This document shows, one piece after another, positions 2,584 to 16,684 of a DNA stretch of 64,000 nt (positions are counted from its first letter, which is position 1; each line of letters opens with the position of its first letter). Source of the stretch: Minisyncoccota bacterium. Its GTDB lineage: Bacteria > Patescibacteriota > Minisyncoccia > UBA9983. The notes under the pieces were generated by a model that saw only the letters and a program-made list of their open reading frames with translations, was not told the DNA's origin and did not search any database. The position numbers and the translations under genes are program-made. The stretch covers positions 31,173-95,172 of the forward strand of contig JBAZPC010000001.1 in NCBI GenBank assembly GCA_041648395.1, written 5' to 3'.

Positions 2584-2595
2584 AATATAAATATT

Positions 2596-3288
2596 ATGAT
2601 ATCTATAGCGCTTCATTTTATTATAGCCATAATATTTTTAGTTTCCTCGGTTGTTCTTTATATTTTATGGAAGAAACAAGGTTCTCCAAAGAATTATATT
2701 ATGGATTACTTTTTCTTTTTAAGTTTTTTTTCACTGTATCATCTTGCGCTTTCGTTGCCATATATAATTTTTGGAGAGAACTTAACATTAATGGCATGGG
2801 GATATATTTTGGCCATGATATCATTGTTATTTTTATTTCCGCGCGTCTATAAAATTACATTAAAAATTTGGGGTGTTTCAGAACAAAAAATCAAATTAGT
2901 GATATATCTGACAACACTTCTTATTCTTACGACTATAATTATATACATATATGATTTTCGCACACCTTATATCGTTAATCCGGGATTCATTATTTGGAAT
3001 GGAAATATTATAGGCAGTATAATAATTTTTTTACTAGGATTAGAAGCAGGTGTTTTCTGGGCTATAACATTTTTAAAGAATATACCAAAGGATTTAATTT
3101 TTATTTATAAATTAAAAACGTACCTTTATATTGCGGCTGCGGTATTGGTAGCTATTTCGTCTATTTATTTTGTTTCCAGAACTGTATTATTGGTAATTAT
3201 CGCTTTTGTTTCCCATGGCCTTGCCAGTGTATTTTTTGTTATACCGGTATTATTACCTAAACCATCCCAAGAAAATATAAATGAATGA
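2596..3288 (+). CDS. Polytopic membrane protein of unknown function, resembling the N-terminal 7TM sensor domain of the adjacent kinase
   Basis: A 230-aa ORF with about 7 hydrophobic segments and no recognisable catalytic motif. Confidence 0.5.
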   Translation: MISIALHFIIAIIFLVSSVVLYILWKKQGSPKNYIMDYFFFLSFFSLYHLALSLPYIIFGENLTLMAWGYILAMISLLFLFPRVYKITLKIWGVSEQKIKLVIYLTTLLILTTIIIYIYDFRTPYIVNPGFIIWNGNIIGSIIIFLLGLEAGVFWAITFLKNIPKDLIFIYKLKTYLYIAAAVLVAISSIYFVSRTVLLVIIAFVSHGLASVFFVIPVLLPKPSQENINE

Positions 3289-3415
3289 AATTATTTTAAT
3301 TGTAATACTCGCGGCGGTTGTGGTTTGGCTTTTGGCGACGCGCAAAAAAGGGGAGAAGAGCCGAAAGCGCGGGGTTAGAAAAGGGTTCGGCTTTTTACAT
3401 GAAATTGCCGGTTAA
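3281..3415 (+). pseudogene. Chimeric gene fragment: a diverged copy of the rmuC 5' end (MNEIILIVILAAVVVWLLATRKK) fused out of frame to a copy of the 3' end of a histidine-kinase gene
   Basis: The 36 nt ggttgtggtttggcttttggcgacgcgcaaaaaag are nearly identical to rmuC 8966-9003. The segment ...gaaagcgcggggttagaaaagggttcggctttttacatgaaattgccggttaaa matches 6112-6165, the HK 3' copy. It carries a TATAAA box 9 nt before the next gene. Confidence 0.5.
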
Positions 3416-3435
3416 AGAGGTATAAATTTACGTTA

Positions 3436-4377
3436 ATGAAATACGAATATAAAAAATTTAATATAAGATATACAGCCAGTTTTACTTCAAAATATAAAAA
3501 TAATGATATTAAGGTTTGGTTTGCAAGACCGACTGATTCCGAATGTCAAAAAATAGAAAAAATAAAGATTTCACCAAAACCACACTCTGATTATAATGAC
3601 AAACAAGGAAATAAAATTTTATACTTTAATTTCGAGAACCAAAAAAGTATAAAAGTACAAATGGATATTAAGGTAATCCTGTGGAAAAATAAAATAAATT
3701 TGTTAAAAGAAAAAATATCATTACCGTCGTTTTCTTCAAAAATATTTCAAAAATATACAAAAAATGAAAAGTTTCTAGAACAAACTTTGACAATAAAAAA
3801 TTTAACTAATCAAATTACTAGAAATGACCAATTTATTTTAGATAAAATCTTTTCAATAACAAAATTTTTAGAAAAAAATTTTAAATATACTTACCCTATC
3901 AAAAATAGGGGGGTTAAAAATTTAGATATTAATAATCTAAAAGGCGATTGTGGTGAAGTGGGTGCTTTATTTGTAACAATGTGCAGAATTTTAGGTATTC
4001 CAGCCCGAAACAACACTGGCTTTGTAATATATCGCGATGAATTAAACAACATATACGAACATGGATGGGGAAGTATTTATTTAAAACCTTATGGGTGGAT
4101 AGATATTGATCCGTTGGCTAATAATATATCTGAAAAAATAAATAAAGAGTATTTATATCACCAAAAAAATTATTTTCTATCTTTTACAAAAGGATTTAAT
4201 ATAAAAATTAATCCAAAAATTCCGAATAAATTTAAAATAGATTATTGGAATAATTTAGGACTACCTTTAACAAATGCATCTGTTCAGGTTTTGCAGCCGT
4301 TAGTTTTTGCATCTAAAGAAAAAGTAGTGTTTTTAGACAGCATAAAATTACTTCCCAATATAAAGAGCCCCAACTAA
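3436..4377 (+). CDS. Transglutaminase-like (Transglut_core) cysteine protease-fold protein
   Basis: Cys/His/Asp signature: GDCGEVGALFVTMCRILGIPARNNTGF ... EHGWGSIYLKPYGWIDIDP. This is the classic transglutaminase-like pattern G-x-C...R..GIPAR...H.W...D. Confidence 0.7.
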   Translation: MKYEYKKFNIRYTASFTSKYKNNDIKVWFARPTDSECQKIEKIKISPKPHSDYNDKQGNKILYFNFENQKSIKVQMDIKVILWKNKINLLKEKISLPSFSSKIFQKYTKNEKFLEQTLTIKNLTNQITRNDQFILDKIFSITKFLEKNFKYTYPIKNRGVKNLDINNLKGDCGEVGALFVTMCRILGIPARNNTGFVIYRDELNNIYEHGWGSIYLKPYGWIDIDPLANNISEKINKEYLYHQKNYFLSFTKGFNIKINPKIPNKFKIDYWNNLGLPLTNASVQVLQPLVFASKEKVVFLDSIKLLPNIKSPN

Positions 4378-4409
4378 AGTTAATTAGTTGGGGCAAAAAA
4401 GGGGATTTC

Positions 4410-4532
4410 TTACCCTTTCTTTACTCGTGCCGAAGACGAAGAACAACTTTTATGAATCGCGCCAACGACAAGATTTTTTGTGTTACCTTTTGCTTCAGCT
4501 TTTGGAGGAACATATTGTTTCTCTTTCTTCAT
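4410..4532 (-). CDS. Small 40-aa peptide, a candidate RiPP precursor: MKKEKQYVPPKAEAKGNTKNLVVGAIHKSCSSSSARVKKG
   Basis: The ORF is immediately downstream of the radical-SAM gene on the same strand. A strong Shine-Dalgarno AAGGAGGTGA (overlapping the rSAM stop) lies 8 nt before the ATG. The N-terminus is Lys-rich and leader-like, and the C-terminal segment is Cys/Ser-rich. It was not in the ORF track because it is under 60 aa. Confidence 0.45.
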   Translation of the reverse strand: MKKEKQYVPPKAEAKGNTKNLVVGAIHKSCSSSSARVKKG

Positions 4533-4540
4533 TGTTTTTT

Positions 4541-5914
4541 TCACCTCCTTTCCTTATTATTTTGAATTAAATGGTTTAAGGTTGTTATCCGACAATTTTC
4601 TGGTGACGGGCCCAAAAGATCGCTTCCTTCTAGAAAGGCCAGCCCCGGACAACGAGCACAAGAAGTAAGCAGTTGACATTTTGAACACTTTGTTAATTTA
4701 CTGATAATTAAACTGCGTAGGTATTGGAGACCAAGAGAGTTGTGCCAAATTTCTGAAAAATTATCTCCTTTTAAATCACCGACTTCATAAAGAAGTTGGT
4801 TGCAGGGCAATACTTTGCCAGAGGGAGTGATGGCGCACGAATTAAATCCGCTATAACACGGAGGAGCATTTGAGATATCAGAAAGTCCGAGATAAAATTG
4901 ATGATCCTGAAACGGTTTTCGCCCAGCGTAGAGGGCTGAAAAATCTTCATCCGCAAGAAATTCTTCTATCTGCCTATCACTCAACCGCAAGTTAAACGTA
5001 TCTTGCGATCCATCGTTGCGCGCAGTAATAATCGGGCTAGGGGAGAGTACGCAATCTAATTCTTCCGTAAGTTTTTTTACTTTATAGCGCTCATTAAAAT
5101 TTATCTGCATCATCGGAAACGCTATTTCAACCTTAACCCCTGCTTTTCTAAGATTCTTAATGCCATCTAAGCTTTTTTGAAATGACCCCGAAAGGCGTGT
5201 AATAGAATCGTGGATTTCGGTGGTTGCCCCATAAAGGCTTACTTGCACCCTTCTTACAGAATACTTTGCTAGCGTGGTTGCTGTTTCTTCACTTATTAGT
5301 GTGCCATTACTTAGTATGTCGATAACAAAATGGAGACTGCTGGCATATTTTACGATATCAATCGCATCTTTGCGTATAAAGAATTCTCCACCAGTAAGCG
5401 ACAAAAAGAGACACCTTTCTTTAGCTAATTCGCCTAAAATCCTTTTGATCTCAGATAGTCTTAAGGAAGGCAAGTTTCTTTCCATATAGCAATGTATACA
5501 TTTTTCATTGCAGGTGTAAGTAGTTTCGAATGTAGCTGCAAAAGGAATAAGATGTTTAATCGCTTCCATTTCTATAGCCAATAACACGTTTTCTCCTTCT
5601 GTTTCTGTGCCTAGGGCATTATTATGCTTGTCAACTTGAAGATGCCGATTATCAAGTTTTAAAAATCCCATTTGCACTGCTTCCTGAAGAAAGGTGTCAA
5701 CATCTTTTTTTGCAATTTTTACACTGAGATCATATTCGGTTGATAGCCATTTAATAACCTGATCATACTTTTGTCCGGATACTAGCTTTTGCCAGATAAT
5801 TGATGCAGCTTCGTTCCAAATAACGATTTTTTGATTTTTGCAGTTAAAAGCAACAACGTTGTCGTTAATGAGTCGCCAGCCAATTCTTGAATTTATCTCA
5901 ATTATTTCCATCAT
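4541..5914 (-). CDS. Radical SAM/SPASM-domain enzyme with an N-terminal PqqD-like RiPP recognition element (RRE), likely a peptide-modifying maturase
   Basis: The N-terminal ~90 aa fit the PqqD/RRE pattern (NEAASIIWQKL...DVDTFLQEAVQMGFL). The radical SAM motif is CNEKCIHC (CX3CX2C). The C-terminus has a Cys-rich SPASM/twitch region (CYSGFNSCAITPSGKVLPCNQ...CSKCQLLTSCARCPG). An AGGAGG sits before the ATG. Confidence 0.85.
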   Translation of the reverse strand: MMEIIEINSRIGWRLINDNVVAFNCKNQKIVIWNEAASIIWQKLVSGQKYDQVIKWLSTEYDLSVKIAKKDVDTFLQEAVQMGFLKLDNRHLQVDKHNNALGTETEGENVLLAIEMEAIKHLIPFAATFETTYTCNEKCIHCYMERNLPSLRLSEIKRILGELAKERCLFLSLTGGEFFIRKDAIDIVKYASSLHFVIDILSNGTLISEETATTLAKYSVRRVQVSLYGATTEIHDSITRLSGSFQKSLDGIKNLRKAGVKVEIAFPMMQINFNERYKVKKLTEELDCVLSPSPIITARNDGSQDTFNLRLSDRQIEEFLADEDFSALYAGRKPFQDHQFYLGLSDISNAPPCYSGFNSCAITPSGKVLPCNQLLYEVGDLKGDNFSEIWHNSLGLQYLRSLIISKLTKCSKCQLLTSCARCPGLAFLEGSDLLGPSPENCRITTLNHLIQNNKERR

Positions 5915-6021
5915 TTTTTCCTCCTTTCTGTTTATTTTTTAAAGACCTGTGGTCTTGTTTTCTGCTTTTAACCCTATACTTTTAATAGCTTTTGTCAATT
6001 TAAAAATGTATAATAATTAAA

Positions 6022-6180
6022 ATGGACACGGCGCAGATAGTGGAAGGCACCGGCCTCGGGCTTTACGTGGCGCGCGAGATTGCCAAGGCGCACGGCGGTA
6101 ATGTTTGGGCGGAAAGCGGGGGGCTGGACAAGGGCTCGGCTTTCTACATGAAATTGCCGGTTAAAAATGTTATATCATAA
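6022..6180 (+). pseudogene. Chimeric 52-codon ORF: the first six codons of rmuC (MDTAQI) fused in frame to a ~140-nt copy of a histidine-kinase HATPase C-terminus (…VEGTGLGLYVAREIAKAHGGNVWAESGGLDKGSAFYMKLPVKNVIS)
   Basis: Bases 6004-6039 are identical to 8917-8952, which is the rmuC promoter plus start. Bases 6040-6150 are about 90% identical to HK 2374-2484. Its stop overlaps the ATG of the next gene (TAATG). Confidence 0.45.
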
Positions 6181-6896
6181 TGAAATCTAAAAAAGATAAT
6201 AAATCAAATATAGAACGTAAAATTATTCCTATTGGCGGTGGATTACTGCGTTTGGACGAAACAATTACCATAGATAAATTTATTGTCAAAGAAAGCGGCA
6301 AAAAAAATCCGAAAGTTTTATTTATACCCACCGCAAGCAAAGATTTACTGGCATACTCCAACGTCTTTCGCCGTGTGTACGAAAAATTAGGGTGCCAAGT
6401 AAAAATCTTGCGTTTATTTAATAAAAGAAAATTTTCTCAAACAACATTAGAAAAACTCATCACAAGTGCCGACATTATTTATGTCGGTGGCGGTGATTAT
6501 GATATTCTGCTTTCGATGTGGAGGAAACACAAAATTATTTCTCTCATACGGTTAGCATACCAACAAGGAACCATTCTCACCGGGTTAAGCGCGGGATGTG
6601 CCGTCTGGTATGAATATCTCATAGATAGCGATAAGGATAAAAAAACTCGCCTCAAAAAAGGGCTCGGCATACTTGAAGGTGTCGTAATTCCTCACTATAG
6701 AACCGAGGATCCACTTTCTCTCGAGATTCGCAAGACAAAAATCATCGTTACTGGCATTGAAGACAAATGTGCCGTGATATACACTAACGAGCACCTAAGA
6801 GGTTCTATACCAGCAAGTAAAGAAAAGGCCTTTACAATTCGCCCTCCTTATGTTAAAAAGAAGCAGGTAACTTTGTACTTTCACAAATCTCATTAA
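6180..6896 (+). CDS. Peptidase S51 family (peptidase E / cyanophycinase-like serine peptidase)
   Basis: IIYVGGGDYDILL...GTILTGLSAGCAV (the Ser nucleophile in SAG) and the downstream VIPHY histidine align with E. coli peptidase E (IIIVGGGNTFQLL...YIGWSAGANLA...NPHF). Confidence 0.75.
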   Translation: MKSKKDNKSNIERKIIPIGGGLLRLDETITIDKFIVKESGKKNPKVLFIPTASKDLLAYSNVFRRVYEKLGCQVKILRLFNKRKFSQTTLEKLITSADIIYVGGGDYDILLSMWRKHKIISLIRLAYQQGTILTGLSAGCAVWYEYLIDSDKDKKTRLKKGLGILEGVVIPHYRTEDPLSLEIRKTKIIVTGIEDKCAVIYTNEHLRGSIPASKEKAFTIRPPYVKKKQVTLYFHKSH

Positions 6897-6915
6897 ACTA
6901 AAAAGGAGGTGGCAG

Positions 6916-7986
6916 ATGATCTCGAAAATTCCACGCCCCCTCCAGTATGGAGATGGGGTAGCTTTGGTCAATCCGGCTGGCGTACTTCCGGAGCGGTTCA
7001 AAAACCAATACAGATATGTCAAGGCTCATCTTGAGGAACTTGGATTTACTGTCAGAGACTTCGTAATTGAAAGTGGTTGGGAGGACGCGCGAAGGCGTAG
7101 TGAAACATTGCAGGCGGCGTTTACCGACCCGCAAGTGAAAGCGATACTGCCTCTCTGTGGTGGCGCGAGAATCTACGACATTCTTCCGCTGATTGATTAC
7201 GATGTGTTAGCCAGTCATCCGAAGATTATTTGCGGTTCGAGCGAGCTTTCGGCTCTTGTGGTAACAATCGCTGAGCGGGCGGGTATGGTAACGTTCTTTG
7301 GTCCGCATCTCAACTTTCTTAACCCCAAGGCGTCAAAACTTGAGAACAGATTCACGGTGAGGAGCTTTTGGAATATGCTCCAGTGGGACTGGCACGGAAG
7401 AAACGGCCTAAGTAAAAACGAGGCGCATCACTTCTTTGTTGCTCCTCGAAAGCCAACTCTTCCGGTGGTAATTCATAACATTTACCGTGATCCGACACGT
7501 ATTACAAATAATCGCTACAGAGACAACTTCTACTACACTCCTATCTCGGATCAGAATGTAACCGGACAGCTCTTGATTGGGTCACTTGCGGTGCTAATAC
7601 GTCTTTGTGAGGAGGGATTGAACCCTGACATAACGGATAAGATTGTCATGCTTGATTCGTTGGATATGTCTCTTGGGACGGTTGCCGAATTACTCCAGCG
7701 TTTCAATGCTCACTGCGATCTTTCCCATGCCACGGCAGTCGTCTTTTCCTCGCTCGCCGAGAGAACGGATCGAGAGAATCTTTTGTATCCGGAATTACGA
7801 GACATGGATCGGGTGAAGGGATTCCTTCAGGAAGTTTCTGAATTGCTCGGAGGAAAACTGCCTCTCTTTTATGGTTTTCCTGTCGGACACTGTGCGTACA
7901 AGCTCACTTTGCCGATTGGGATTACCGCCTCCATCGTTGTTGAAACCGGCGACTTGCTACTCGTGGAGTCTCCGTACCAACAATAA
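6916..7986 (+). CDS. Peptidase S66 family (LD-carboxypeptidase LdcA / microcin C7 immunity MccF-like)
   Basis: ILPLCGGARIYDILPLIDYDVLASHPKIICGSSELSALVV...VTFFGPHL aligns with LdcA (LAVRGGYGASRLLADIDWQAL...LLICGHSDFTAIQ...ITFSGPML). The C-terminal GFPVGH provides the catalytic His. A GGAGGTGG SD sits before the ATG. Confidence 0.75.
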   Translation: MISKIPRPLQYGDGVALVNPAGVLPERFKNQYRYVKAHLEELGFTVRDFVIESGWEDARRRSETLQAAFTDPQVKAILPLCGGARIYDILPLIDYDVLASHPKIICGSSELSALVVTIAERAGMVTFFGPHLNFLNPKASKLENRFTVRSFWNMLQWDWHGRNGLSKNEAHHFFVAPRKPTLPVVIHNIYRDPTRITNNRYRDNFYYTPISDQNVTGQLLIGSLAVLIRLCEEGLNPDITDKIVMLDSLDMSLGTVAELLQRFNAHCDLSHATAVVFSSLAERTDRENLLYPELRDMDRVKGFLQEVSELLGGKLPLFYGFPVGHCAYKLTLPIGITASIVVETGDLLLVESPYQQ

Positions 7987-8018
7987 AGGCTGAATAGAAC
8001 AAGTTCTATTCAGCCTTT

Positions 8019-8795
8019 TTACTTCTCTGCAAGGAGTTTGTTGATGAGCTGAGCGTCTTTGTCCGCTATACCGTATTCGGAATTTAACACCGTGGCTTGA
8101 AGACGTTCCCGAAGTTCGACATCGTGACTCAACTGATCAGCAAACGTTACAAGTGCCTCCCTCGTTTCCTTCTTGTAGTTCTGGAGTTTGGTGTACACCA
8201 CGTTCCGAAAGAATATAACAAGATCAAGGTCAGAGGCGTTGAGGGAGTCAAACTTTGCTCGGTCAAGCTCGTAAGCGAGTTCGCGACGCATAGTAAACAT
8301 AAGTTCAAGATATGCCGATGAAGCTTCTTGAACCCGCCGTCCTCTTACCAACTCAACGAAACTTGATATTGCGGTACCTATCATGTCGCCCGAGAAGATT
8401 TTACAGCCGAACGATACGGTAACATTCTCGTCCGCGAGGTGAGTATTCTCCTTGATGAAGTTATTTACTTCATCTCCCAACATTAAGAAAAACTTGTTCA
8501 CGACCGATTGGTCAGTTGCTACTCCGATAGCAAAGATTTCTTCTCCCGAAGGAATCATGCAAAAGGATGGAATCGCTTTCGAGTGCCTCTTGATAAATCC
8601 GTACATGAACGCACCAATTAGGCGATTGTAGATGTCTACAAGATTCTCCGCCAATGGACGTCCATACCGCGAGACAAAGACCCCAAGGTTATCGAGGTCT
8701 CCAGTGACCCCGAACAGAAACATATCTTGGTCGCGGTCGTAGGTTTCAACAACTTTCAAAATTTTTCTGCTCCAAATACGCTGGTGCTTTTTCAT
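8019..8795 (-). CDS. Hypothetical protein, possibly a divergent GGDEF-like palm-domain (nucleotide cyclase-like) protein
   Basis: The ORF is 258 aa with a good SD (AAAGGAGATAAGTC). The segment FGVTGDLDNLGVFVSRYGRPLAENLV loosely aligns with the GGDEF metal-binding/beta1 region (LDxDxFKxxNDxxGHxxGDxxL). SGEEIFAIGVATD loosely aligns with R-Y-GGEEF-AVLLP. The assignment is tentative. Confidence 0.4.
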   Translation of the reverse strand: MKKHQRIWSRKILKVVETYDRDQDMFLFGVTGDLDNLGVFVSRYGRPLAENLVDIYNRLIGAFMYGFIKRHSKAIPSFCMIPSGEEIFAIGVATDQSVVNKFFLMLGDEVNNFIKENTHLADENVTVSFGCKIFSGDMIGTAISSFVELVRGRRVQEASSAYLELMFTMRRELAYELDRAKFDSLNASDLDLVIFFRNVVYTKLQNYKKETREALVTFADQLSHDVELRERLQATVLNSEYGIADKDAQLINKLLAEK

Positions 8796-8899
8796 GACTT
8801 ATCTCCTTTTTATGTATTATTTAATGTGCTATTTAAAAACCATCTCTAGAGTATATTATATTTTTTATTTCGTCAAATTATTCTAAAATAGATAAAATT

Positions 8900-8934
8900 T
8901 TGAAATTGCCGGTTAAAAATGTATAATAATTAAA
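8900..8934 (+). promoter_or_regulatory. Candidate sigma70-type promoter for rmuC (TTGAAA-16 nt-TATAAT) placing the transcription start at or just before the ATG, giving a leaderless or near-leaderless mRNA; it lies within a copy of the HK 3' end
   Basis: TTGAAA is at 8900-8905, TATAAT at 8922-8927 and the ATG at 8935. There is no SD. Confidence 0.4.
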
Positions 8935-9969
8935 ATGGACACGGCGCAGATAATTATAATTGCAGTGCTTGCGACGGTTGTCGTTTGGCTTTTGGCGACG
9001 CGCAAAAAAGAGGAGGAGGGCGACGGCAACGGCGCCATTTTGATGATGCAGGAACAGCTGAAGGAAATCAGGAATACCTTGGACACGAAAATGGGGGAGT
9101 CAACAAAGGCCGTTCAACATCAATTCAGTGAGAGCGCCAAAATTATCCGCGACGTCACGGAAAAACTCACAAAGCTTGACGAAACAAACAAGCAGGTTGT
9201 CGGCTTCGCCGATCAACTTCAAAATTTGCAGGATATTTTACAGAATCCGAAGCAGAGAGGAGTGCTGGGCGAATATTATTTGGAAACCGTGCTAAAAAAT
9301 GTCCTTCCGCCGGGCAGATTCCAAATGCAATATAAATTTTCTGATGGAGAAATCGTTGACGCCGTGATCTTTTTGGATAAAGATAAAATCTTGCCCATTG
9401 ATTCAAAGTTTTCTTTGGAAAATTATAATCGCATTCTGGGCGAGAGAAACGCAACTGAGCGGGAAAATTTTGAAAAAGCGTTCAAGCAGGATCTGAAAAA
9501 CAGAATTGACGAAACCTCAAAATACATCAGACCAAAAGAGGGGACGATGGATTTCGCTTTTATGTTTATTCCCTCGGAGGCGATTTATTACGACTTGCTA
9601 ATTAACCAAGTCGGCGCGGTAAAGACCAACACGCGCGATCTCATAGAATACGCGTTCCAGCAGAAGCATGTCATTATTGTTTCCCCCACGTCGTTTATGG
9701 CATATTTGCAGACAGTTTTGCAGGGATTGCGGGCGTTGCAGATAGAGGAATCGGCGAAAGAGATAAGGAAGAGAGTTGAGGAGCTCGGCAGGCATTTGGG
9801 CAACTATGAGCAGTTTATGAAAAAGCTTGGCGTGAATTTAACAACTACCGTCAACGCTTATAACGCGTCTTATAAAGAGCTGAATAAAATAGACAAAGAT
9901 GTCTTGCGCATCACCGGCGAAGCCGTCGGCATGGAACCAATGGCGCTTGACAAACCAGAGGAGGTTTGA
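8935..9969 (+). CDS. rmuC: DNA recombination protein RmuC
   Basis: N-terminal TM helix. The conserved RmuC core is QRGVLGEYYLETVLKNVLPPGRFQMQYKF...DAVIFLDKDKILPIDSKFSLENY...AFMFIPSEAIY. Confidence 0.85.
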   Translation: MDTAQIIIIAVLATVVVWLLATRKKEEEGDGNGAILMMQEQLKEIRNTLDTKMGESTKAVQHQFSESAKIIRDVTEKLTKLDETNKQVVGFADQLQNLQDILQNPKQRGVLGEYYLETVLKNVLPPGRFQMQYKFSDGEIVDAVIFLDKDKILPIDSKFSLENYNRILGERNATERENFEKAFKQDLKNRIDETSKYIRPKEGTMDFAFMFIPSEAIYYDLLINQVGAVKTNTRDLIEYAFQQKHVIIVSPTSFMAYLQTVLQGLRALQIEESAKEIRKRVEELGRHLGNYEQFMKKLGVNLTTTVNAYNASYKELNKIDKDVLRITGEAVGMEPMALDKPEEV

Positions 9970-10026: not shown

Positions 10027-10836
10027 ATGCTTATAAGATTATTTGGAGCAATCCAAAGGTATTTTGGAGCGCTGGCGCGGTTGCAGGAAGTTTTGTTGCC
10101 TTGTATAGTAAAGGCAATGGTGCACAAAAGAGAAAAATTGACCGCGAAAGAGGAACACGTACTGGATTTTTTTGCCCACTCCTCAATAGAAATGTTGACT
10201 AAGCGCCTTACTAAAAAAAGAGTGATGATTGCATTAGTGGGACTTGTGGGGTCTGGAAAAAGTTCAGTGGCACATGAACTTGCACCTGAAATAGGCGCAG
10301 CGGTGATTGAAGGAGACGCAATCCGCGTTTTTCTTCGCAAAGAAGGAGAAAGATATGATAAAGCAAGAAGAATAGCTGAAGATGCCGGTTTATATCTTCT
10401 GGGGCGCGGCGCCAACGTAATTTTTGACTCCGACCATATTGACCCTGCCAAGCGCGCGAGCTTGAAAGCCAAAGCGAAAGAAGTCGGCGCCGAGTTGATT
10501 TTTATCCGCACATTTACCGACAGCAACGACAATCCGCAAATTCCCGGCTATAATCTTGATGAGATGATAGGAAGGAATATGATTGCACCGCCCGATAAAT
10601 TTTTTAGTAAGGCATCGACGTCGTGGGAAGGGACTGCTCAGCAAAAAGGCTCCGTTGTTAAACTGCGCGAAATGATAAGGCGAATTCTTCACCATTATCG
10701 TTGGGTCAACGAAACTGGCGGCAGATTTATCCTCAGAAAACTTCCGTTCAAAATATTCGCGGAAATAAATACCATTAACCCAAAATGGGAGAAAGAGGTT
10801 AAAAAAATGGCCGAGAAAATTATTGAAAAGTTTTAG
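10027..10836 (+). CDS. P-loop NTPase / predicted kinase (AAA_33 or zeta-toxin-like fold)
   Basis: Walker A is GLVGSGKSS. SD AAGAAGGAGG lies 6 nt before the ATG. Confidence 0.6.
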   Translation: MLIRLFGAIQRYFGALARLQEVLLPCIVKAMVHKREKLTAKEEHVLDFFAHSSIEMLTKRLTKKRVMIALVGLVGSGKSSVAHELAPEIGAAVIEGDAIRVFLRKEGERYDKARRIAEDAGLYLLGRGANVIFDSDHIDPAKRASLKAKAKEVGAELIFIRTFTDSNDNPQIPGYNLDEMIGRNMIAPPDKFFSKASTSWEGTAQQKGSVVKLREMIRRILHHYRWVNETGGRFILRKLPFKIFAEINTINPKWEKEVKKMAEKIIEKF

Positions 10837-10910: not shown

Positions 10911-11237
10911 ATGACAAAAATTGCGGTTATTATGACCGGCGGGAAGCAGTATGTGGTCAAGCCGGGGGATGTGTTAAATATTGAGAGAATTGCTGCCAAG
11001 AAAGACGGCAGTATTGATTTTGATAAAGTGCTTTTGACGGCCGACCCCGCCGATAGCGGGGCAAGTGGGATTAAAATCGGTACGCCGTTTGTTGCAGGAG
11101 CCAAGGTCTCCGCTAAAACGGAAGGCGAGATAAGAGGAAAGAAAACAATCGCCATGCGATATAAAGCAAAAACCCGCACCCAAACCAGAAAAGGCCATAG
11201 GCAAACCTATACCAGTATAAAAGTAGTTAGTATTTAG
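10911..11237 (+). CDS. rplU: 50S ribosomal protein L21
   Basis: MTKIAVIMTGGKQYVVKPGDVLNIERI matches the L21 N-terminus. The alternative start at 10902 is not excluded. Confidence 0.8.
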   Translation: MTKIAVIMTGGKQYVVKPGDVLNIERIAAKKDGSIDFDKVLLTADPADSGASGIKIGTPFVAGAKVSAKTEGEIRGKKTIAMRYKAKTRTQTRKGHRQTYTSIKVVSI

Positions 11238-11250
11238 TATCCAGTATTTT

Positions 11251-11880
11251 CTAACTCCTATTTTTTAGCGCGTTGTTTAATGTTTCGCTGTCTATGTATT
11301 CCAATTCGGTGCCAGTGGAAAGTCCGCGGCCGAGCTTTGATGTTTTTATTTCTTGTCCGCCTTTGGAGGATAATGGCTGTAAAATTTTCTCTATATAACG
11401 ACTAGTATTTTCGCCTTCTATTGTGGCGCTCAACGCCAAAATAATTTCCAGGGGCTCTCCCTGTACTGAGCTTTGTCGAAGCATTTCAAATAAGTCCTTG
11501 AAGCGCAACTCGCTGGCATTATTCTTTCCGTTCAATGAAATAGTTCCGCCCAAAATAAAATATTTTCCGTTGTAGACGCCTGTTTTTTCCAAATTATCTA
11601 AATCAACATTTTTTTCAACCACCATAAGCAGGGAAGAGTCGCGGTTCGGGCTTGAACATATACCGCATAACGGCGAACCGACGCCTGGCGTCAGTGATTC
11701 GTAAAAACGAAAACAGCTTGAACATTGCTTGGCGTTTTTTTTGATTTCCAAAATCGCCTCGGCAAGGGCGCTGGCGAAGTCCTTATTTTCGCCCGCTAAA
11801 AAATAAGCGAAACGCCTAGCTTGCCTCGGCCCAATGCCGGGAAATTTGAGAAAAAGTTCGGTCAGTTTTTCAAAAATCAT
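11251..11880 (-). CDS. recR: Recombination protein RecR
   Basis: HhH motif KFPGIGPRQARRFAYFL, C4 zinc finger CSSCFRFYESLTPGVGSPLCGICS, and a Toprim region. Confidence 0.9.
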   Translation of the reverse strand: MIFEKLTELFLKFPGIGPRQARRFAYFLAGENKDFASALAEAILEIKKNAKQCSSCFRFYESLTPGVGSPLCGICSSPNRDSSLLMVVEKNVDLDNLEKTGVYNGKYFILGGTISLNGKNNASELRFKDLFEMLRQSSVQGEPLEIILALSATIEGENTSRYIEKILQPLSSKGGQEIKTSKLGRGLSTGTELEYIDSETLNNALKNRS

Positions 11881-13235
11881 AAGTCGCCAAAGTCACCCTT
11901 TTCTATGTTCATAAAGCTGACTTTGTCAGGGTTGAAATAAAGCTGAAGTTTTCCTGTCGGTCCGTTTCTGTGTTTTTCAATAAGTATCTCGGCAATATTT
12001 TTCTTGTCTGAATTTTCATTATACATATCTTCTCTATAAATAAACATAACCACGTCCGCGTCTTGTTCAATACTTCCGGAATCCCGCAGGTCGTGGAGCT
12101 TTGGCCTTCTGTCGTGGCGCGATTCCACGGCTCTGGAAAGCTGCGAGATTGCTAAAATCGGCACGTCCAGTTCTTTTGCTAATCCCTTGAGCGAGCGGGA
12201 AATTTCCGTCATTTGCTGGACGAGGTTGTCTGTTTTTTGGCGGGGAACCATAAGGCCGAGATAATCCACAATCAAAAGCCCAAGCCCGTGCTCCGCTTGC
12301 ATTCTGCGCGCCATGGCGCGCATTTGCATAATGTTGTTGGATGCCTCGTCGTCAATAAAAAGAGGGATTTTGGAAAGCGTGTCCAAGGCATCGCTGATGC
12401 GTCGAAACTCATCATCCGTGGAGAGTCGGCCTGTGCGCAATTTCCATGAATCAACGTGCGCCTCCGCCGCCAAGAGGCGGTCAATGAGCTGTTGCGAGGA
12501 CATTTCCAAACTGAAGACGCCGACAGGGATGCCTTTTTTGGCGACATTTCTGGCAATATCCAAAGCCAAAGCGGTTTTTCCCATAGAAGGCCTGGCTGCC
12601 AAAATAATAAGGTCTGATTTTTGAAATCCAGCAAGCTTGTCATCAAGCTCGCGAAAACCGGACGGAATGCCGCGCATTTCTTCTTTTGATTTATGCAGGC
12701 GGTCAATTCTTTCCCACGCTTCCGTAAGAGCGGTTTTGATATTTTGAAATTTTTGTTTTATAGAATATCTGGCGATGCTGAATATCTTTTTTTCCGCCTC
12801 ATCAAGAAGGACTTCCACATCGTCTTCTTCCTGATAACCCAAATTTGAAATATGGCTTGAAGATTCTATTAAGTCCCTTAAAATTTTTTTCTTGCGCACA
12901 ATTTCCGCGTAATGTTTGGCGTTGGCGGAAGAAGGAGTGCTGTTCACGAGTTCGGTGAGATAGGAATTTCCTCCGATTTGCTTAAGTATCTTTTTTTCTT
13001 TTAGCCGAGAGGTGATAGAAAGAATATCTATGGGTTCCTTTTTTTTATAGAGGTCCAGCATGGCTTCGTAAATCTGCTCGTTTTTCTGGTCGTAAAAATC
13101 TTCCGCTTTTAAAATATCCACAATGACATTCATAATTTTGTGGTCAAGCATCAAAGAACCCAGAACCGAGCGTTCCATTTCAATATCCTGAGGCGGGATT
13201 CTAAGATTAGATTTAACGCTTTTCTCCGGCGACAT
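11877..13235 (-). CDS. dnaB: Replicative DNA helicase DnaB
   Basis: N-terminal PPQDIEMERSVLGSLML. Walker A is AARPSMGKTALALDIA. The RecA-like core is H1a-H4. The start was chosen at MSPEK; the track ORF extends to 13271. Confidence 0.9.
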   Translation of the reverse strand: MSPEKSVKSNLRIPPQDIEMERSVLGSLMLDHKIMNVIVDILKAEDFYDQKNEQIYEAMLDLYKKKEPIDILSITSRLKEKKILKQIGGNSYLTELVNSTPSSANAKHYAEIVRKKKILRDLIESSSHISNLGYQEEDDVEVLLDEAEKKIFSIARYSIKQKFQNIKTALTEAWERIDRLHKSKEEMRGIPSGFRELDDKLAGFQKSDLIILAARPSMGKTALALDIARNVAKKGIPVGVFSLEMSSQQLIDRLLAAEAHVDSWKLRTGRLSTDDEFRRISDALDTLSKIPLFIDDEASNNIMQMRAMARRMQAEHGLGLLIVDYLGLMVPRQKTDNLVQQMTEISRSLKGLAKELDVPILAISQLSRAVESRHDRRPKLHDLRDSGSIEQDADVVMFIYREDMYNENSDKKNIAEILIEKHRNGPTGKLQLYFNPDKVSFMNIEKGDFGDL

Positions 13236-14640
13236 ACGGGTATAATAACACACCTTTGGCGGTGTCTTCAACCTCGTAGCCCTTTTGCCTTATTTTCTCA
13301 CGGAGTTTATCCGCTTCAGCCCAGTTTTTGGCCTTTCGCGCTTGTTCGCGTTTTTCGGCGAGGGCTACAATTTCTTTTGGTGTTTTTGCTTGTTTTGTTT
13401 TTGATTTAAACGCGTCTTTTAATTTTAATCCTAAGACCTTGTCAAAATCTAAAATAGTAGTCAGTTTTGAGTAGTCAGTAGTCAGACGAGATTTTAATAA
13501 TTCCTGAACAATAGCCAACGCTTTGGGGGTATTCAGGTCGTCATTAATAGCGTCTAAAAATTTTTCTTTAAACTTTTTATCAACTTTTTTGTTAGCTGAA
13601 AGCTGAAAGCCCGCCTTGCCGTCGGGCAGGCTGAAAGCTGAAAGCTGGTTATATAAATTTTCCAGCCCCTTTTCCGCCGCCTCTAACGACTTCCATGTAA
13701 AATTTAATTTTGAGCGATAATGAGAAGTTAGAATAAGGTAACGAAAGGCAAGCAGATTTATTTTTTTGTTTTCCAAATCGCGGAGCGTAAAAATATTGCC
13801 GAGCGACTTTGACATTTTTTGCCCGTCAACCAAAAGATGCTCTCCATGAACCCAATATTTAGAAAATGTTTTTCCGGTCGCGCCTTCGGATTGGGCTATT
13901 TCGTTTTCGTGGTGGGGGAATATCAAATCAACCGCGCCAGCATGAATATCTAATGTCTTACCGAGATATTTCATGCTCATCGCCGAACATTCAATGTGCC
14001 AGCCCGGCCGGCCCTTGCCCCTAGGGTGACCCGGGCTAGTCCATGGACTTGGCCACGACGGCTCGTTTGGTTTTGCCGATTTCCATAAAACAAAGTCCCG
14101 CGCCTGTTTCTTATTGTATTCATCGGCGGATATTCTCGCGCCAATTTTTATCTCGCGTTTTTTAAGCTGCGACAGCTTTCCGTAATTCTTGAATTTTTTA
14201 ATGCTGAAATAAATTGACCCGTCTTCTCCTCGGTAGGCAATTCTTTTCGTGAGCAATTTCTTTGTTATATCAATCATTTCTTTGATATGTCCGGTGGCCT
14301 TGGGATAAAATTCCACTTTTTCTATGTTTAGTTTTTTCAGGTCTTCAAAAAATATTTTCGTATATGGTTTGGTGACAGTATATATATCCTTCCCTTCTGC
14401 TTGCGCTTTTTTAATAATTTTATCTTCTATATCTGTAATGTTCATGGCCTGCTTTACTTGATAGTCGTTGAATTTCAAAACACGGCGCAAAATATCTTCA
14501 AAAATGTAAGTGCGTAAATTGCCGATGTGCGCGAAATCATAAACAGTCGGCCCGCAAGTATACATGCCGACTTTGCCTTTTTTTATCGGCTTAAAAATTT
14601 CTTTTTTGAGAGAAAGTGTGTTGTATATTTTTACAGCCAT
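13213..14640 (-). CDS. cysS: Cysteinyl-tRNA synthetase
   Basis: MYTCGPTVYDFAHIGN (HIGH motif), KMSKSLGN, and a conserved class I CysRS N-terminus. Confidence 0.9.
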   Translation of the reverse strand: MAVKIYNTLSLKKEIFKPIKKGKVGMYTCGPTVYDFAHIGNLRTYIFEDILRRVLKFNDYQVKQAMNITDIEDKIIKKAQAEGKDIYTVTKPYTKIFFEDLKKLNIEKVEFYPKATGHIKEMIDITKKLLTKRIAYRGEDGSIYFSIKKFKNYGKLSQLKKREIKIGARISADEYNKKQARDFVLWKSAKPNEPSWPSPWTSPGHPRGKGRPGWHIECSAMSMKYLGKTLDIHAGAVDLIFPHHENEIAQSEGATGKTFSKYWVHGEHLLVDGQKMSKSLGNIFTLRDLENKKINLLAFRYLILTSHYRSKLNFTWKSLEAAEKGLENLYNQLSAFSLPDGKAGFQLSANKKVDKKFKEKFLDAINDDLNTPKALAIVQELLKSRLTTDYSKLTTILDFDKVLGLKLKDAFKSKTKQAKTPKEIVALAEKREQARKAKNWAEADKLREKIRQKGYEVEDTAKGVLLYPYVAGEKR

Positions 14641-15554
14641 CTTTTGCTTTTGAAAAAGAAAAACATAACCGTCGTTGCCATTGCCATAATTCCTATCACT
14701 ATCCAGAAGTCGCCAGGAGTTCCAACTATCGGCGTGAATTTGGTATCCATGCTAAAAAGTCCGGCAAAAAGCATGAGAGGAAAAGTGAGAAACGCCACGA
14801 TTGTAAAGGTCTTCATAATTTCGTTTGACCTATGCGAGAGAAGGGAGTCAACCGTTTCCTGCAGCGATTCAATTGTTTCTCTATATCCGCCAGCAATGTT
14901 CCAAATTTTGTAGTATTCTCCAATAATATTACTCAAATAATGGTCAAAGCCGTCTTTGAAAAAACTTTTGCAGGCGTGGTCAAGGGAGATAAAAACTTCC
15001 TTGTGAGGGTGAATAATTCTTCTGAAATCAAGAATATCCCTCCTTGTGTGAGAAATTTTTCTTACTAAATCGTATTGGGCACCTTTTCCTTTTTCAAACA
15101 TTCTTTGTTCAATGTCGGCAATTTTTGCCTGAACGGTATCTAATTGTTTCAAAGAAAAATCGTATAATTGCCTGACGATATAAAACATTAATATTCCGGT
15201 GTTTTTCGTCAGATATCTTTCACCTAGCATGGCGTCCGCTTCAAATATCTTTGTCATTTCATAAAGAGGCGGAATGGTTTTGTAATGAGTGGTGATGAGA
15301 AAGTTTTTCCCAACAACAAAATCAATCTCGCAATCGCTATAACTGCGCGTGGTGTTGTCAAAAATAGGGAAATGAATGACAAGATAAATAAATTCCTCAA
15401 AGACGTCTACTTTGGCCCTAAAAGTCGGCTTCAAAAGTTCGTTGGCCACGAGGGGATGAATTGAATATTTGTGCATTATCTGTTTAACCTCGTCGTTTGT
15501 CGGGTTTTCCAAATCAATCCAACTCAATTTTTTGTGTTTAAACGTGGAAATCAT
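14631..15554 (-). CDS. corA: CorA-family magnesium/cobalt transporter
   Basis: CorA N-terminal cytoplasmic domain. Two C-terminal TM helices carry a GMN-like loop (FSMDTKF). Confidence 0.75.
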   Translation of the reverse strand: MISTFKHKKLSWIDLENPTNDEVKQIMHKYSIHPLVANELLKPTFRAKVDVFEEFIYLVIHFPIFDNTTRSYSDCEIDFVVGKNFLITTHYKTIPPLYEMTKIFEADAMLGERYLTKNTGILMFYIVRQLYDFSLKQLDTVQAKIADIEQRMFEKGKGAQYDLVRKISHTRRDILDFRRIIHPHKEVFISLDHACKSFFKDGFDHYLSNIIGEYYKIWNIAGGYRETIESLQETVDSLLSHRSNEIMKTFTIVAFLTFPLMLFAGLFSMDTKFTPIVGTPGDFWIVIGIMAMATTVMFFFFKSKRWL

Positions 15555-15583
15555 AACGTTTTTATTATAGCATAGGACTGCAA

Positions 15584-16684
15584 ATGTTTGAAATTAAAAA
15601 AAGGCATAAAAAGGCGCGGCTGGGGATTTTAACGACGCCCCACGGCAAAATTCAGACGCCGAATCTGGCTTTTGTGGCAACTCACGGAAATATAAGGATT
15701 CTGGACAAAAAAGAACAAAAAACAGCCGGACCAGATTTGATAATAGCCAACACTTTTCATCTTTGGGTGAATAAAAAAGTCGGCGAAATAAAAAAGGCCG
15801 GAGGAATCCATAAATGGAACGGATTAAAAATTCCGACAATGACCGACAGCGGGGGTTTCCAGGTGTTTAGCTTGGGATGGGGGAAAACCCACAACATAGG
15901 AAAAGTTAAATCTAAAATCTCAAACATCAAAACTGACGGTAAATCGCAAGTGAAAATAAACAATAACGGCGTGGTTTTTGAATATGACGGCAAAAAATAC
16001 GAACTGACGCCGGAAAAATCAATCAAGCTTCAGCGCGACATCGGCGCCGATATTATTTTTGTTTTTGACGAATGCACTTCGCCTTTGCACGATTTTGCTT
16101 ACAATAAAAAATCTTTAAAGAGGACACACAGGTGGGCCAAGCAGTCGTTATCGGCGCATAAAAGATTTATGATTCATGATTCAAGATACAAGCAACAACT
16201 TTTCGGCATAGTGCAAGGGGGCGTTTATGAAAAATTAAGAAAGGAGTCGTCAAAATTTGTCGGCGCGCTTGATTTTGACGGCTTCGGTATCGGCGGTTCG
16301 TTCGGAGAAAAACAGATGGGAATGGTCTTGGAATGGGCGTTGAGCGGTTTGCCGGAGGAAAAACCGCGCCACCTGCTTGGCATTGGCAAAATAAAAGATA
16401 TTTTTATCGCAGTAGAAAAGGGGATAGACCTTTTTGACTGCGCCATTCCCACGCGCGAAGCAAGGCACGGGGCCATTTACACAAAAGACGGAAAAATAAA
16501 TTATAGGAAAAAAGGAATGAAATTTCACAACATTTACAAAAAAGACAAAATCAAAGCGATGAAACTCGCCACGATTCATAACATCAAATTTTACAAGGAA
16601 TTATTCAGCGAAATTCGCAAAACAATAAGAAAGGGCAAAAACCTAAGCGCCTTGAAAAAAGAATATAAAGGGTGTATCATTTAG
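15584..16684 (+). CDS. tgt: Queuine/archaeosine tRNA-guanine transglycosylase
   Basis: IIANTFHLW...PTMTDSGGFQVFSLG...DCAIPTREARHG matches the Tgt catalytic core. Confidence 0.85.
   Translation: MFEIKKRHKKARLGILTTPHGKIQTPNLAFVATHGNIRILDKKEQKTAGPDLIIANTFHLWVNKKVGEIKKAGGIHKWNGLKIPTMTDSGGFQVFSLGWGKTHNIGKVKSKISNIKTDGKSQVKINNNGVVFEYDGKKYELTPEKSIKLQRDIGADIIFVFDECTSPLHDFAYNKKSLKRTHRWAKQSLSAHKRFMIHDSRYKQQLFGIVQGGVYEKLRKESSKFVGALDFDGFGIGGSFGEKQMGMVLEWALSGLPEEKPRHLLGIGKIKDIFIAVEKGIDLFDCAIPTREARHGAIYTKDGKINYRKKGMKFHNIYKKDKIKAMKLATIHNIKFYKELFSEIRKTIRKGKNLSALKKEYKGCII

Follow-up and report, generated by a model that had tools for sequence, protein, structure and literature searches.

A three-gene cassette linking a new family of palm-domain proteins to S66 and S51 hydrolases in a Patescibacteriota genome

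We analysed a stretch of 64,000 nucleotides (nt) from a Minisyncoccota bacterium (GTDB lineage Bacteria; Patescibacteriota; Minisyncoccia; UBA9983), corresponding to positions 31,173 to 95,172 of the forward strand of contig JBAZPC010000001.1 (NCBI GenBank assembly GCA_041648395.1); this whole stretch is hereafter called the window. The element under study is a cassette of three genes, which encode an S51 peptidase-like protein, an S66 peptidase-like protein and, on the opposite strand, a 258-amino-acid (aa) protein with a palm domain, here called gg. The three open reading frames (ORFs) had already been delimited, with exact coordinates, in a preliminary description made from the sequence alone, and its assignment of the first two to the S51 and S66 families was confirmed by Pfam. 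The features of the cassette, in positions of the window, are the following.

6180-6896, + strand: S51 gene, 238 aa (Pfam Peptidase_S51, E = 1.5e-37)
6897-6915, + strand: S51-S66 spacer, 19 nt, with the Shine-Dalgarno (SD) sequence AAGGAGGTG for the S66 gene
6916-7986, + strand: S66 gene, 356 aa (Pfam Peptidase_S66, N-domain E = 1.8e-21, C-domain E = 2.7e-12)
7985-8018, no strand assigned: perfect 15-bp hairpin between the convergent S66 and gg genes (-20.4 kcal/mol, z = -6.5)
8019-8795, - strand: gg gene (palm-domain protein), 258 aa, founder of a new family
8796-8882, - strand: gg promoter region, with a -35 box TTGACG, an A/T-rich -10 box, a 5' untranslated region (UTR) of about 45 nt and the SD sequence AAAGGAGA

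The spacer with its AAGGAGGTG sequence agrees with the earlier reading of S51 and S66 as SD-coupled. The hairpin, which we read as a shared bidirectional intrinsic terminator, is 91-94% identical in the cassettes of two other loci (L005 and L023), and the gg promoter, 5' UTR and SD sequence are kept across the aligned cassettes. The cassette extends over approximately 6171-8900 and comprises, beyond the three ORFs, the gg promoter with its 5' UTR and the hairpin; no gene for a sensor, a transporter, a regulator or a precursor belongs to it. Neither an N-terminal signal nor a hydrophobic stretch was seen in the translations of S51, S66 and gg, which were read by eye with no predictor run, and on this reading of our own all three proteins look cytoplasmic. 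No Rfam RNA element was found in 5800-9100.

The genomic neighbourhoods were read for proteins picked from the list of gg homologues and, independently, from the list of S66 homologues. Some 25 non-redundant loci had the same three families side by side, arranged in three orders, so that the grouping proposed in the preliminary description, which absence of the three genes together elsewhere would have spoken against, was not refuted. In genomes of the Candidate Phyla Radiation (CPR), gg converges with S66 and S51 on the opposite strand (gg-> <-S66 <-S51, architecture A), and this across many unrelated genomic contexts. In gut metagenome-assembled genomes (MAGs) labelled Alphaproteobacteria (taxon labels are here always the depositors' own) the order is gg->S66, with overlapping genes (architecture B), and in Microgenomates, Daviesbacteria and others it is gg->S51->S66, again with overlapping genes (architecture C). 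The gg gene also adjoins all three members of the S66 clade that were selected without regard to it (P0109, P0120 and P0129, with identities as low as 30%), and even around S66 proteins only 30-42% identical to the window copy, S51 lies upstream and a gg homologue downstream. Precisely, every examined locus of this S66 clade has either an adjoining gg gene or a decayed gg copy, and the nearest S66 protein out of the clade (P0131) adjoins Amidase_3/NAGPA genes, with gg not seen there.

Further evidence for a common history comes from the proteins themselves. Fusions of gg and S51 were found as two representatives, of which one, 488 aa long, was seen in several samples, on 10 contigs in all, with an S66 gene overlapping it downstream. 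The identities of gg and S66 to the window copies go together (r = 0.98, n = 20 non-redundant loci), and at least 16 further pairs of gg and S66 clusters agree in the size of their longest source contig, which is indirect support. With ratios of nonsynonymous to synonymous substitution rates (dN/dS) of 0.11-0.31 for gg, S66 and S51, all three genes are under purifying selection. We conclude that the trio is a real unit, in which gg and S66 are evolutionarily interdependent and the third enzyme can be swapped, fused or lost; the 258-aa protein, earlier taken as a bystander, is instead the anchor of the module. In one locus (L026) S51 has been lost, and in another (L016) S66 is split by a frameshift, possibly an assembly error. 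A toxin-antidote (addiction) reading of the unit was set aside, since decayed loci lose either partner.

The S66 protein had been described as LdcA- or MccF-like, with the proposal that it be placed in one of these two subfamilies. The likeness in architecture to MccF stood and the placement did not, the gg-linked S66 proteins forming a clade of their own. Against the NCBIfam equivalog of LdcA (NF008424) the window protein scores 66.2 bits, with a cutoff of 378 bits, and in a neighbour-joining tree (no bootstrap) with E. coli MccF (from the mcc plasmid) and LdcA the gg-linked proteins are separate from both; the bit scores of homologues drop from 159 for the last member of the clade to 88 for everything else. 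Among sequences in the PDB, MccF-clade entries were matched at 61-73 bits and LdcA-type entries at about 19-40 bits. When the AlphaFold model of S66 (predicted local distance difference test, pLDDT, 95.3) was searched with Foldseek, the top 30 matches were all from the MccF clade (template modelling score, TM-score, 0.70-0.75), and LdcA came next (0.64-0.69). A hidden Markov model (HMM) of the clade aligned E. coli MccF end to end, lid included (85 bits), and E. coli LdcA in two pieces, with the lid skipped (54 bits). A clustering with housekeeping LdcA, which the preliminary description had named as what would speak against its proposal, was hence not what we observed.

The catalytic triad S109/H325/acidic 247 is present in 63/63 sequences of the clade, residue 247 being Asp in 51 and Glu in 12 of them. 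An insertion of about 80 residues (136-215) aligns with the lid region of MccF and contains the invariant E143, W152, N188 and Y190; of the aromatic residues in this region, W152, F174 and Y190 are invariant or nearly so, and no equivalent of MccF W186 was assignable. Outside the lid, H131, R283 and K329 are also invariant. This S66 is a third subfamily with MccF-like architecture, neither MccF nor LdcA, and not a housekeeping LdcA.

For gg, no Pfam or NCBIfam family was found above threshold. Its AlphaFold model (pLDDT 94.7; predicted template modelling score, pTM, 0.87) has a beta-alpha-alpha-beta-beta-alpha-beta palm domain (approximately residues 25-135), followed by an all-helical C-terminal domain of about 120 aa. 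In Foldseek searches of the PDB the best matches of the model were GGDEF domains and Cas10/Csm1 palms (probability 1.0, E about 2e-4), with a superposition confined to the palm domain. The Pfam profile Cas10-Cmr2_palm2 (PF22335) was weakly matched by 6/26 gg members (best E = 2.2e-5), the sole score seen among these six, that of P0323, being 16.6 bits and thus under the gathering cutoff of 27 bits; the Pfam GGDEF profile (PF00990) was matched by 0/26, even at E <= 10. Two motifs, TGD33-x-D35 and PSGEE86, vary little or not at all: D33, E85 and E86 are invariant, and D35 is found in at least 90% of the members. The invariants of the alignment are T31-G-D33, G38, V41, G45-R46, A49-E-N-L-V53, N57 and G84-E-E86, and in the C-terminal half R170, D178, K181, R197, N198, Y207, K208 and Y241-G242 are conserved. 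The motif of the hairpin is SGEE(I/V)F and not GG[DE]EF. The earlier label "GGDEF-like" is justified at the level of the fold by the AlphaFold/Foldseek match, the weak Cas10-Cmr2_palm2 matches and the two motifs.

A word-indexed search gave 58 gg clusters, all of about 250-260 aa and none with a Pfam domain; the clusters with a source name were all from CPR (Paceibacterota, Tagabacteria, Roizmanbacteria and Peregrinibacteria), and a MAG of Candidatus Paceibacterota (CPR) has a recorded copy, on a contig of 110 kb, that is identical to the 258-aa protein. In an exhaustive HMMER search among 1.84 billion representatives, the profile of the family found 85 proteins and no ordinary GGDEF or Cas10 protein at E <= 1e-3; against PDB sequences it gave only a chance match to a ribosomal protein. 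By its sequence gg was considered as neither of the GGDEF family nor of the mCpol family, and it is a new family in the Cas10/GGDEF superfamily. The acidic residues for two-metal nucleotidyl transfer are conserved, and on this ground gg is predicted to be an active nucleotidyltransferase or cyclase.

The S51 protein has a type 1 glutamine-amidotransferase-like fold, and at least 98% of the 73 homologues compared have kept S137 and H172. Judged by conservation, the acid of the triad would be D195, kept in at least 98%, or E194, kept in at least 90%. We predict that it is an exopeptidase. It lies under the cutoffs of both NCBIfam equivalogs compared, cyanophycinase (60.4 vs 126.6 bits) and PepE (38.5 vs 156 bits), and its closest solved relative is the cyanophycinase 7uqv (35 bits). 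The trio S51 grades into a broad set of stand-alone S51 proteins from genomes of CPR, DPANN-type archaea (Woesearchaeota and Pacearchaeota) and Bacillus/Clostridia, among others. In the lineage labelled Alphaproteobacteria S51 is absent and a prolyl-aminopeptidase-like S33 protein is found instead (TIGR01249, 197-221 bits, cutoff 260), its gene being convergent to the gg-S66 pair in L009-L012 and directly upstream of the pair in L030. Given this replacement, the N-terminal exopeptidase step looks conserved. Like S66, the window S51 belongs to a known peptidase family, in which it represents a new subfamily.

When 185,579 genomes, one for each species, were scanned by pattern, 17 gg loci came to light, a number to be read as a lower bound; these were in CPR genomes and in MAGs labelled Alpha- or Gammaproteobacteria. 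One gg-S51 fusion protein (P0360), sister of the fusion in L081, is labelled "[archaeon]" by NCBI. The 488-aa fusion and its overlapping S66 gene lie at 6001-8485 of L081 (also in L082 and L083), and their neighbours are Archease-RtcB, a lipoprotein with a zinc-protease motif (HEFGH) and a surface protein that is rich in Cys and has an anchor at its C-terminus; the surface proteins are, in our own reading, archaeal in look.

Compared with unrelated CPR genomes, the window shares a block of 2.7 kb at 81-86% DNA identity, in which homology to the other cassettes starts at 6168-6208 and ends at 8809-8882, depending on the genome. No recombinase was found within the cassette. The block, together with 22-nt direct repeats that bound the cassette in the window, bears out the earlier claim that the trio arrived as a unit at a hotspot. 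We consider the cassette as a mobile unit without a recombinase, which apparently crosses domains. GC content was rejected as a sign of foreign origin (43.5% in the cassette and 41.7% in the rest of the window). An integron-type cassette was also set aside, because the flanks are host-target duplications of varied length (22, at least 77 and 115 nt) with no integrase near.

Several other loci show features at the borders or in the surroundings of the cassette. In L024 a 115-nt repeat (7664-7778 and 10913-11027) contains a tRNA 3' fragment beside a tRNA-Ile gene; L023 is a contig of 3,142 bp with identical 77-nt ends next to a tRNA-His gene, that is either a circular form or flanking repeats; and in L001 a tRNA-Gly gene (10703-10776) adjoins the cassette. 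In two independent loci, L017 (6470-7198) and L028 (10126-10710), the trio or pair has a NUDIX hydrolase gene as its direct neighbour, which may be a hint of nucleotide-linked chemistry or a coincidence. In Hainich groundwater CPR (L007/L008, approximately 11000-15600) the trio lies downstream of a HisKA_7TM kinase, in parallel to the window, and the intervening bacteriocin-like cassette encodes an M16 peptidase, a faint C39-like protein and an ORF of 31-33 aa.

In the window, the trio is the last of three stacked cassettes that fill the span 2584-8934 between a histidine kinase gene (892-2583) and rmuC (8935-9969). The order is a transmembrane protein, then a transglutaminase and radical S-adenosylmethionine (SAM)/SPASM-PqqD genes, and then S51, S66 and gg. 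The features that mark the borders of the trio are the following.

6022-6180, + strand: chimeric remnant ORF, 52 aa, made of the first 6 codons of rmuC and the last 46 codons of the histidine kinase
6149-6170, no strand assigned: left direct repeat, 22 nt, TGAAATTGCCGGTTAAAAATGT, left boundary of the cassette, 100% identical to 8901-8922
8901-8922, no strand assigned: right direct repeat, 22 nt, which with 8922-8927 makes the rmuC promoter TTGAAA-16-TATAAT

The joints between the cassettes are chimeric, each consisting of an rmuC 5' fragment and a kinase 3' fragment (3290-3361 + 3360-3421 and 6000-6039 + 6039-6170). At the second joint, 6000-6039 is identical to 8913-8952, and 6039-6158 matches the 3' end of the kinase gene (2370-2489) at 86% identity. 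The 52-aa ORF starts with MDTAQI, the start of RmuC, and continues with the last 46 residues of the kinase (from the G2 box to the C-terminus); its TAA stop overlaps the S51 ATG by 1 nt, and translation of S51 may be coupled to it. This ORF is a scar of cassette stacking that is now the leader of the S51-S66 operon.

The 22-nt repeat is the 3' end of the histidine kinase gene and, at the same time, the -35 box and spacer of the rmuC promoter, which agrees with the consensus at 11/12 positions; the cassette was therefore inserted inside the rmuC promoter. At the left junction a hybrid ATGAAA-16-TTATAT resulted, with the S51 ATG 4-5 nt further (6148-6175). In other genomes each end of the cassette carries a promoter directed inwards: the gg promoter is conserved as TTGACG...TAtTAT, and that of S51 reads TTTACa-17-TATTGT about 8 nt before the ATG, a spacing with which the S51 transcript would probably be leaderless there. 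In the window, the -35 part of the S51 promoter is replaced by the kinase-end repeat.

The three copies of the kinase end are 63-91% identical, which suggests separate donors. We infer repeated, homology-anchored insertion of segments of the type kinase-end - cassette - rmuC-start without an integrase; such segments could have been circular on entry, or linear with a single illegitimate joint. In the other trio loci neither of the two repeats, kinase-end and rmuC-start, was found. A scan of metagenomes with the 18-mer ATGAAATTGCCGGTTAAA for empty or otherwise filled kinase-rmuC sites found 39 loci, none of them with further homology to the window. The tail of the intact kinase (892-2583) is about 27 aa long and Lys/Glu-rich (…EERRKKEEEEKAKKEKVEQFIKKI), and it is missing from the remnants, which end …MKLPVKNV or …MKLPVKEV; the present 3' end of the kinase may itself have been replaced during acquisition of the cassettes. 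The neighbouring cassettes (2596-5914) are low in GC (31-33% vs 41% for the window). Their radical-SAM/SPASM enzyme has an N-terminal PqqD-like domain, of the type that recognises ribosomally synthesised and post-translationally modified peptides (RiPPs), and its sole matches in PADLOC were to pVip models (1e-17), of the generic radical-SAM kind. The short ORFs in 4388-4668 are candidate precursor peptides.

As to the function, the reading that we favour is a coupled nucleotide-based conflict module, in which S66 would bind or cleave the product of gg; we regard it as plausible, with a confidence somewhat short of even. In this mechanism, gg would be a single-palm synthase that turns nucleoside triphosphates (NTPs) into a small nucleotide product, possibly an oligonucleotide, whether cyclic or linear, or else a conjugate of a nucleotide with a nucleoside that carries an amino acid (compare the SAM-AMP of Cas10). 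S66 would recognise this product via its lid, and the product would either regulate it or serve as its substrate. Together with the exopeptidase it would be the hydrolytic output, acting on a molecule of aminoacyl- or peptidyl-nucleotide type: the exopeptidase would trim from the N-terminus, and S66 would cut the last amide next to the nucleotide. The biological role would likely be conflict-related, that is defence-type signalling or control of a peptide-nucleotide toxin. There are precedents for the single steps. Minimal Cas10-like cyclases serve defence in small operons of two genes (PMC12657218, PMC12657230), SAM-AMP is made by Cas10 from ATP and the amino-acid nucleoside SAM (PMC10600005), and MccF cleaves aminoacyl-nucleotide amides, with W186 of its lid stacking on the substrate adenine (PMC8323819).

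Several observations weigh against this mechanism. The supposed chemical link between the gg product and S66 is drawn from co-occurrence, not from chemistry, and none of the recognised nucleotide-sensor domains CARF, SAVED and S-2TM-beta is present in the trio. We know of no exopeptidase-type enzyme that acts as a nucleotide-signalling effector. In PADLOC-DB 2.0 no model was significantly matched by any trio protein, the sole match listed being S66 against GajA (E = 0.021, 11.6 bits). A tblastn search of gg against plasmids and phages, together with a scan of viral contigs, found no copy. The MccF segment E243-D-S-R246-K247 aligns with D247-T-L-D250-M251 of the S66 clade, where D250 is present in 58/63 sequences; K247, named together with N220 as a mutated active-site residue in the title of PDB entry 3tly, is not conserved, and therefore the substrate would differ from processed microcin C. 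Finally, the module decays: L025 has gg alone, with D35N, L033 has kept gg and S51 with S66 down to 24 codons, and in L027 gg has an in-frame stop codon.

The alternative that survives best, although we consider it rather unlikely, is immunity or detoxification against peptide-nucleotide (Trojan-horse, microcin C-like) or aminoacyl-nucleoside antibiotics, close to what the preliminary description had suggested. The exopeptidase would trim the carrier peptide, S66 would cleave the toxic aminoacyl-nucleotide, and gg would, for example, add a nucleoside monophosphate (NMP) to the 3'-OH, or regulate. With this agree the position of S66 nearer to MccF than to LdcA, an N-terminal exopeptidase (S51 or S33) as conserved second hydrolase, the cytoplasmic look of the trio proteins, a horizontal movement that resembles that of a resistance cassette, and the location in variable hotspots by bacteriocin- or RiPP-like cassettes (radical-SAM/SPASM in the window, M16/C39-like in L007). 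Furthermore, stand-alone MccF homologues confer resistance to microcin C, and aminopeptidases process it (PMC8323819). However, precisely because stand-alone MccF homologues suffice (PMC8323819), simple antibiotic immunity leaves the interdependence of gg and S66 unexplained: in the examined loci this S66 clade never occurs without gg, intact or decayed, and the gg-S51 fusion is not accounted for either. The clade has not kept the K247 of MccF, and next to that position it has an Asp that is close to invariant. In none of the examined loci does a gene of mcc type (ThiF/MccB adenylyltransferase, MFS exporter or GNAT) adjoin the trio, whereas the E. coli mcc plasmid has such genes, and an aminopeptidase would activate a Trojan-horse compound unless it were tightly coupled to S66.

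The trio could also serve, without any conflict, the metabolism of an endogenous amino-acid-nucleotide conjugate or cofactor, gg activating or joining the nucleotide and the hydrolases releasing or trimming the amino-acid part. Tight coupling of three enzymes and gene fusion are typical of pathways, and NUDIX hydrolase genes are adjacent in two independent loci (L017 and L028). As a lead only, the type 1 glutamine-amidotransferase-like hydrolase Cj1417 of Campylobacter reportedly cleaves CDP-L-glutamine to a nucleotide phosphoramidate. But the family is rare and patchy (17 among the 185,579 species genomes, 85 representatives), the cassette moves among unrelated genomes at 81-86% DNA identity, the module decays readily, and no neighbouring transporter or further biosynthetic gene is conserved, so that we consider this explanation improbable.

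Salvage of peptidoglycan stem peptides, the other role suggested in the preliminary description, is weakened further. Here S66 would be an LD-carboxypeptidase on murein tetrapeptide, S51 or S33 would remove the N-terminal L-Ala, and gg would be a regulatory cyclase. The S66 family includes LdcA, with triad and fold common to both, and the hosts, auxotrophic and of reduced genome, would gain from salvage. Yet the equivalog score is 66 vs 378 bits, the clade stands apart from E. coli LdcA and has a lid that LdcA lacks, and no murein-recycling genes are adjacent, the one S66 protein beside Amidase_3 (P0131) being out of the clade. Fused members are found in archaeon-labelled MAGs beside Archease-RtcB, and archaea are without murein. 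An obligate palm-domain partner would be left unexplained as well, and we consider this role very improbable. The chance adjacency of three unrelated genes, for which one could cite that gg is on the opposite strand with its own promoter, is refuted by the neighbourhood survey and has a negligible probability, given the approximately 25 loci in three orders, the gene fusion, the r of 0.98 and the 2.7-kb block shared as DNA.

The coupled mechanism is therefore the one that we favour, since immunity fails on the linkage of gg with S66, and murein salvage on the clade, the context and the archaeal-labelled members. A broader proposal, which we hold as possible though doubtful, is that the gg family with its exopeptidase-type hydrolase partners constitutes a new class of nucleotide-based systems for immunity or for the control of toxins, in which a conjugate of a nucleotide with an amino acid or a peptide would be the signal or the target. 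The literature on S51/S66/GGDEF combinations, on LD-carboxypeptidase with Patescibacteria and on MccF with anti-phage systems yielded no description of the trio. If true, such a class would be a third branch beside two recently recognised ones, the minimal Cas10-like cyclases (mCpol/Panoptes) and the SAM-AMP-type signals, and it would join two fields so far apart, nucleotide immune signalling and Trojan-horse peptide-nucleotide antibiotics. The proteins are small and the models of gg and S66 confident (pLDDT values above), which makes the hypothesis directly testable in vitro and in E. coli. The stacking of cassettes, for its part, indicates how genomes without obvious integrases may build variable islands, by duplicated target fragments and by insertion in a promoter.

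Among known systems, MccF and the MccF-clade proteins of Bacillus anthracis and Listeria have in common with the window S66 the two-domain S66 fold, the Ser-His-acid triad and the lid-aligned insertion, and MccF gives its best structural (TM-score 0.70-0.75) and PDB sequence matches. Both are cytoplasmic as far as we read the translation of ours, and both are at times convergent to partner genes, as in the mcc plasmid. Nevertheless, identity is only 18-23%, the tree clades are separate, and R246/K247 of MccF are D250/M251 in the S66 clade. The insertion of the clade is longer (about 80 aa) and has its own invariants (E143, W152, N188 and Y190), and in the examined loci the clade is never found by mcc genes and always by a palm-domain gene. 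LdcA has the same Pfam domains, fold and triad, but it is without the lid segment; the window S66, in turn, lacks a murein-recycling context and has relatives in archaeal-labelled MAGs.

As to gg, mCpol/OptS (Panoptes) likewise belongs to the Cas10/GGDEF superfamily, has a single stand-alone palm and shares a tiny mobile operon with a partner protein (PMC12657218, PMC12657230), and the distance from the first catalytic Asp to the acidic hairpin is 52 residues in gg vs 51 in KpOptS (D6, D57; PMC12657218). However, no match to mCpol was seen when the family profile was searched against PDB sequences, and no OptS/mCpol entry was among the top 50 Foldseek matches. Moreover, gg has an extra helical domain of about 120 aa (258 aa in total vs a palm alone of about 120 aa, by estimate) and keeps a near-canonical SGEE(I/V)F hairpin, which is largely absent from mCpol. 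The partners also differ, being S-2TM-beta, CARF-2TM or SAVED-2TM effectors for mCpol/OptS (PMC12657218) and S66, S51 or S33 hydrolases for gg. With the Cas10 palm of type III CRISPR systems, including the SAM-AMP enzymes (PMC10600005), gg shares the palm fold (Foldseek match to Csm1) and the weak PF22335 matches in 6/26 members, but it is without a second palm domain, an HD domain, a zinc finger and a CRISPR context. The GGDEF domains of diguanylate cyclases, such as DosC, DgcB and the Thermotoga maritima GGDEF domain (4urq/4urg), are the best PDB fold matches, and their D-x-D strand and G-E-E hairpin are present in gg, which has neither the RxxD I-site upstream of the hairpin nor a sensory N-terminal domain. 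At the position equivalent to N335 of PleD, which we take to be the Asn that reads guanine, gg has the invariant V41.

With PepE and cyanophycinase, the window S51 shares the Pfam S51 domain, the conserved Ser and His and, as it seems, a Glu or Asp as third residue. It lies under both equivalog cutoffs and scores at most 35 bits against any solved S51 structure; and, unlike these enzymes, the S51 of the trio is sometimes fused to the palm-domain protein and can be replaced by an S33 aminopeptidase-like enzyme.

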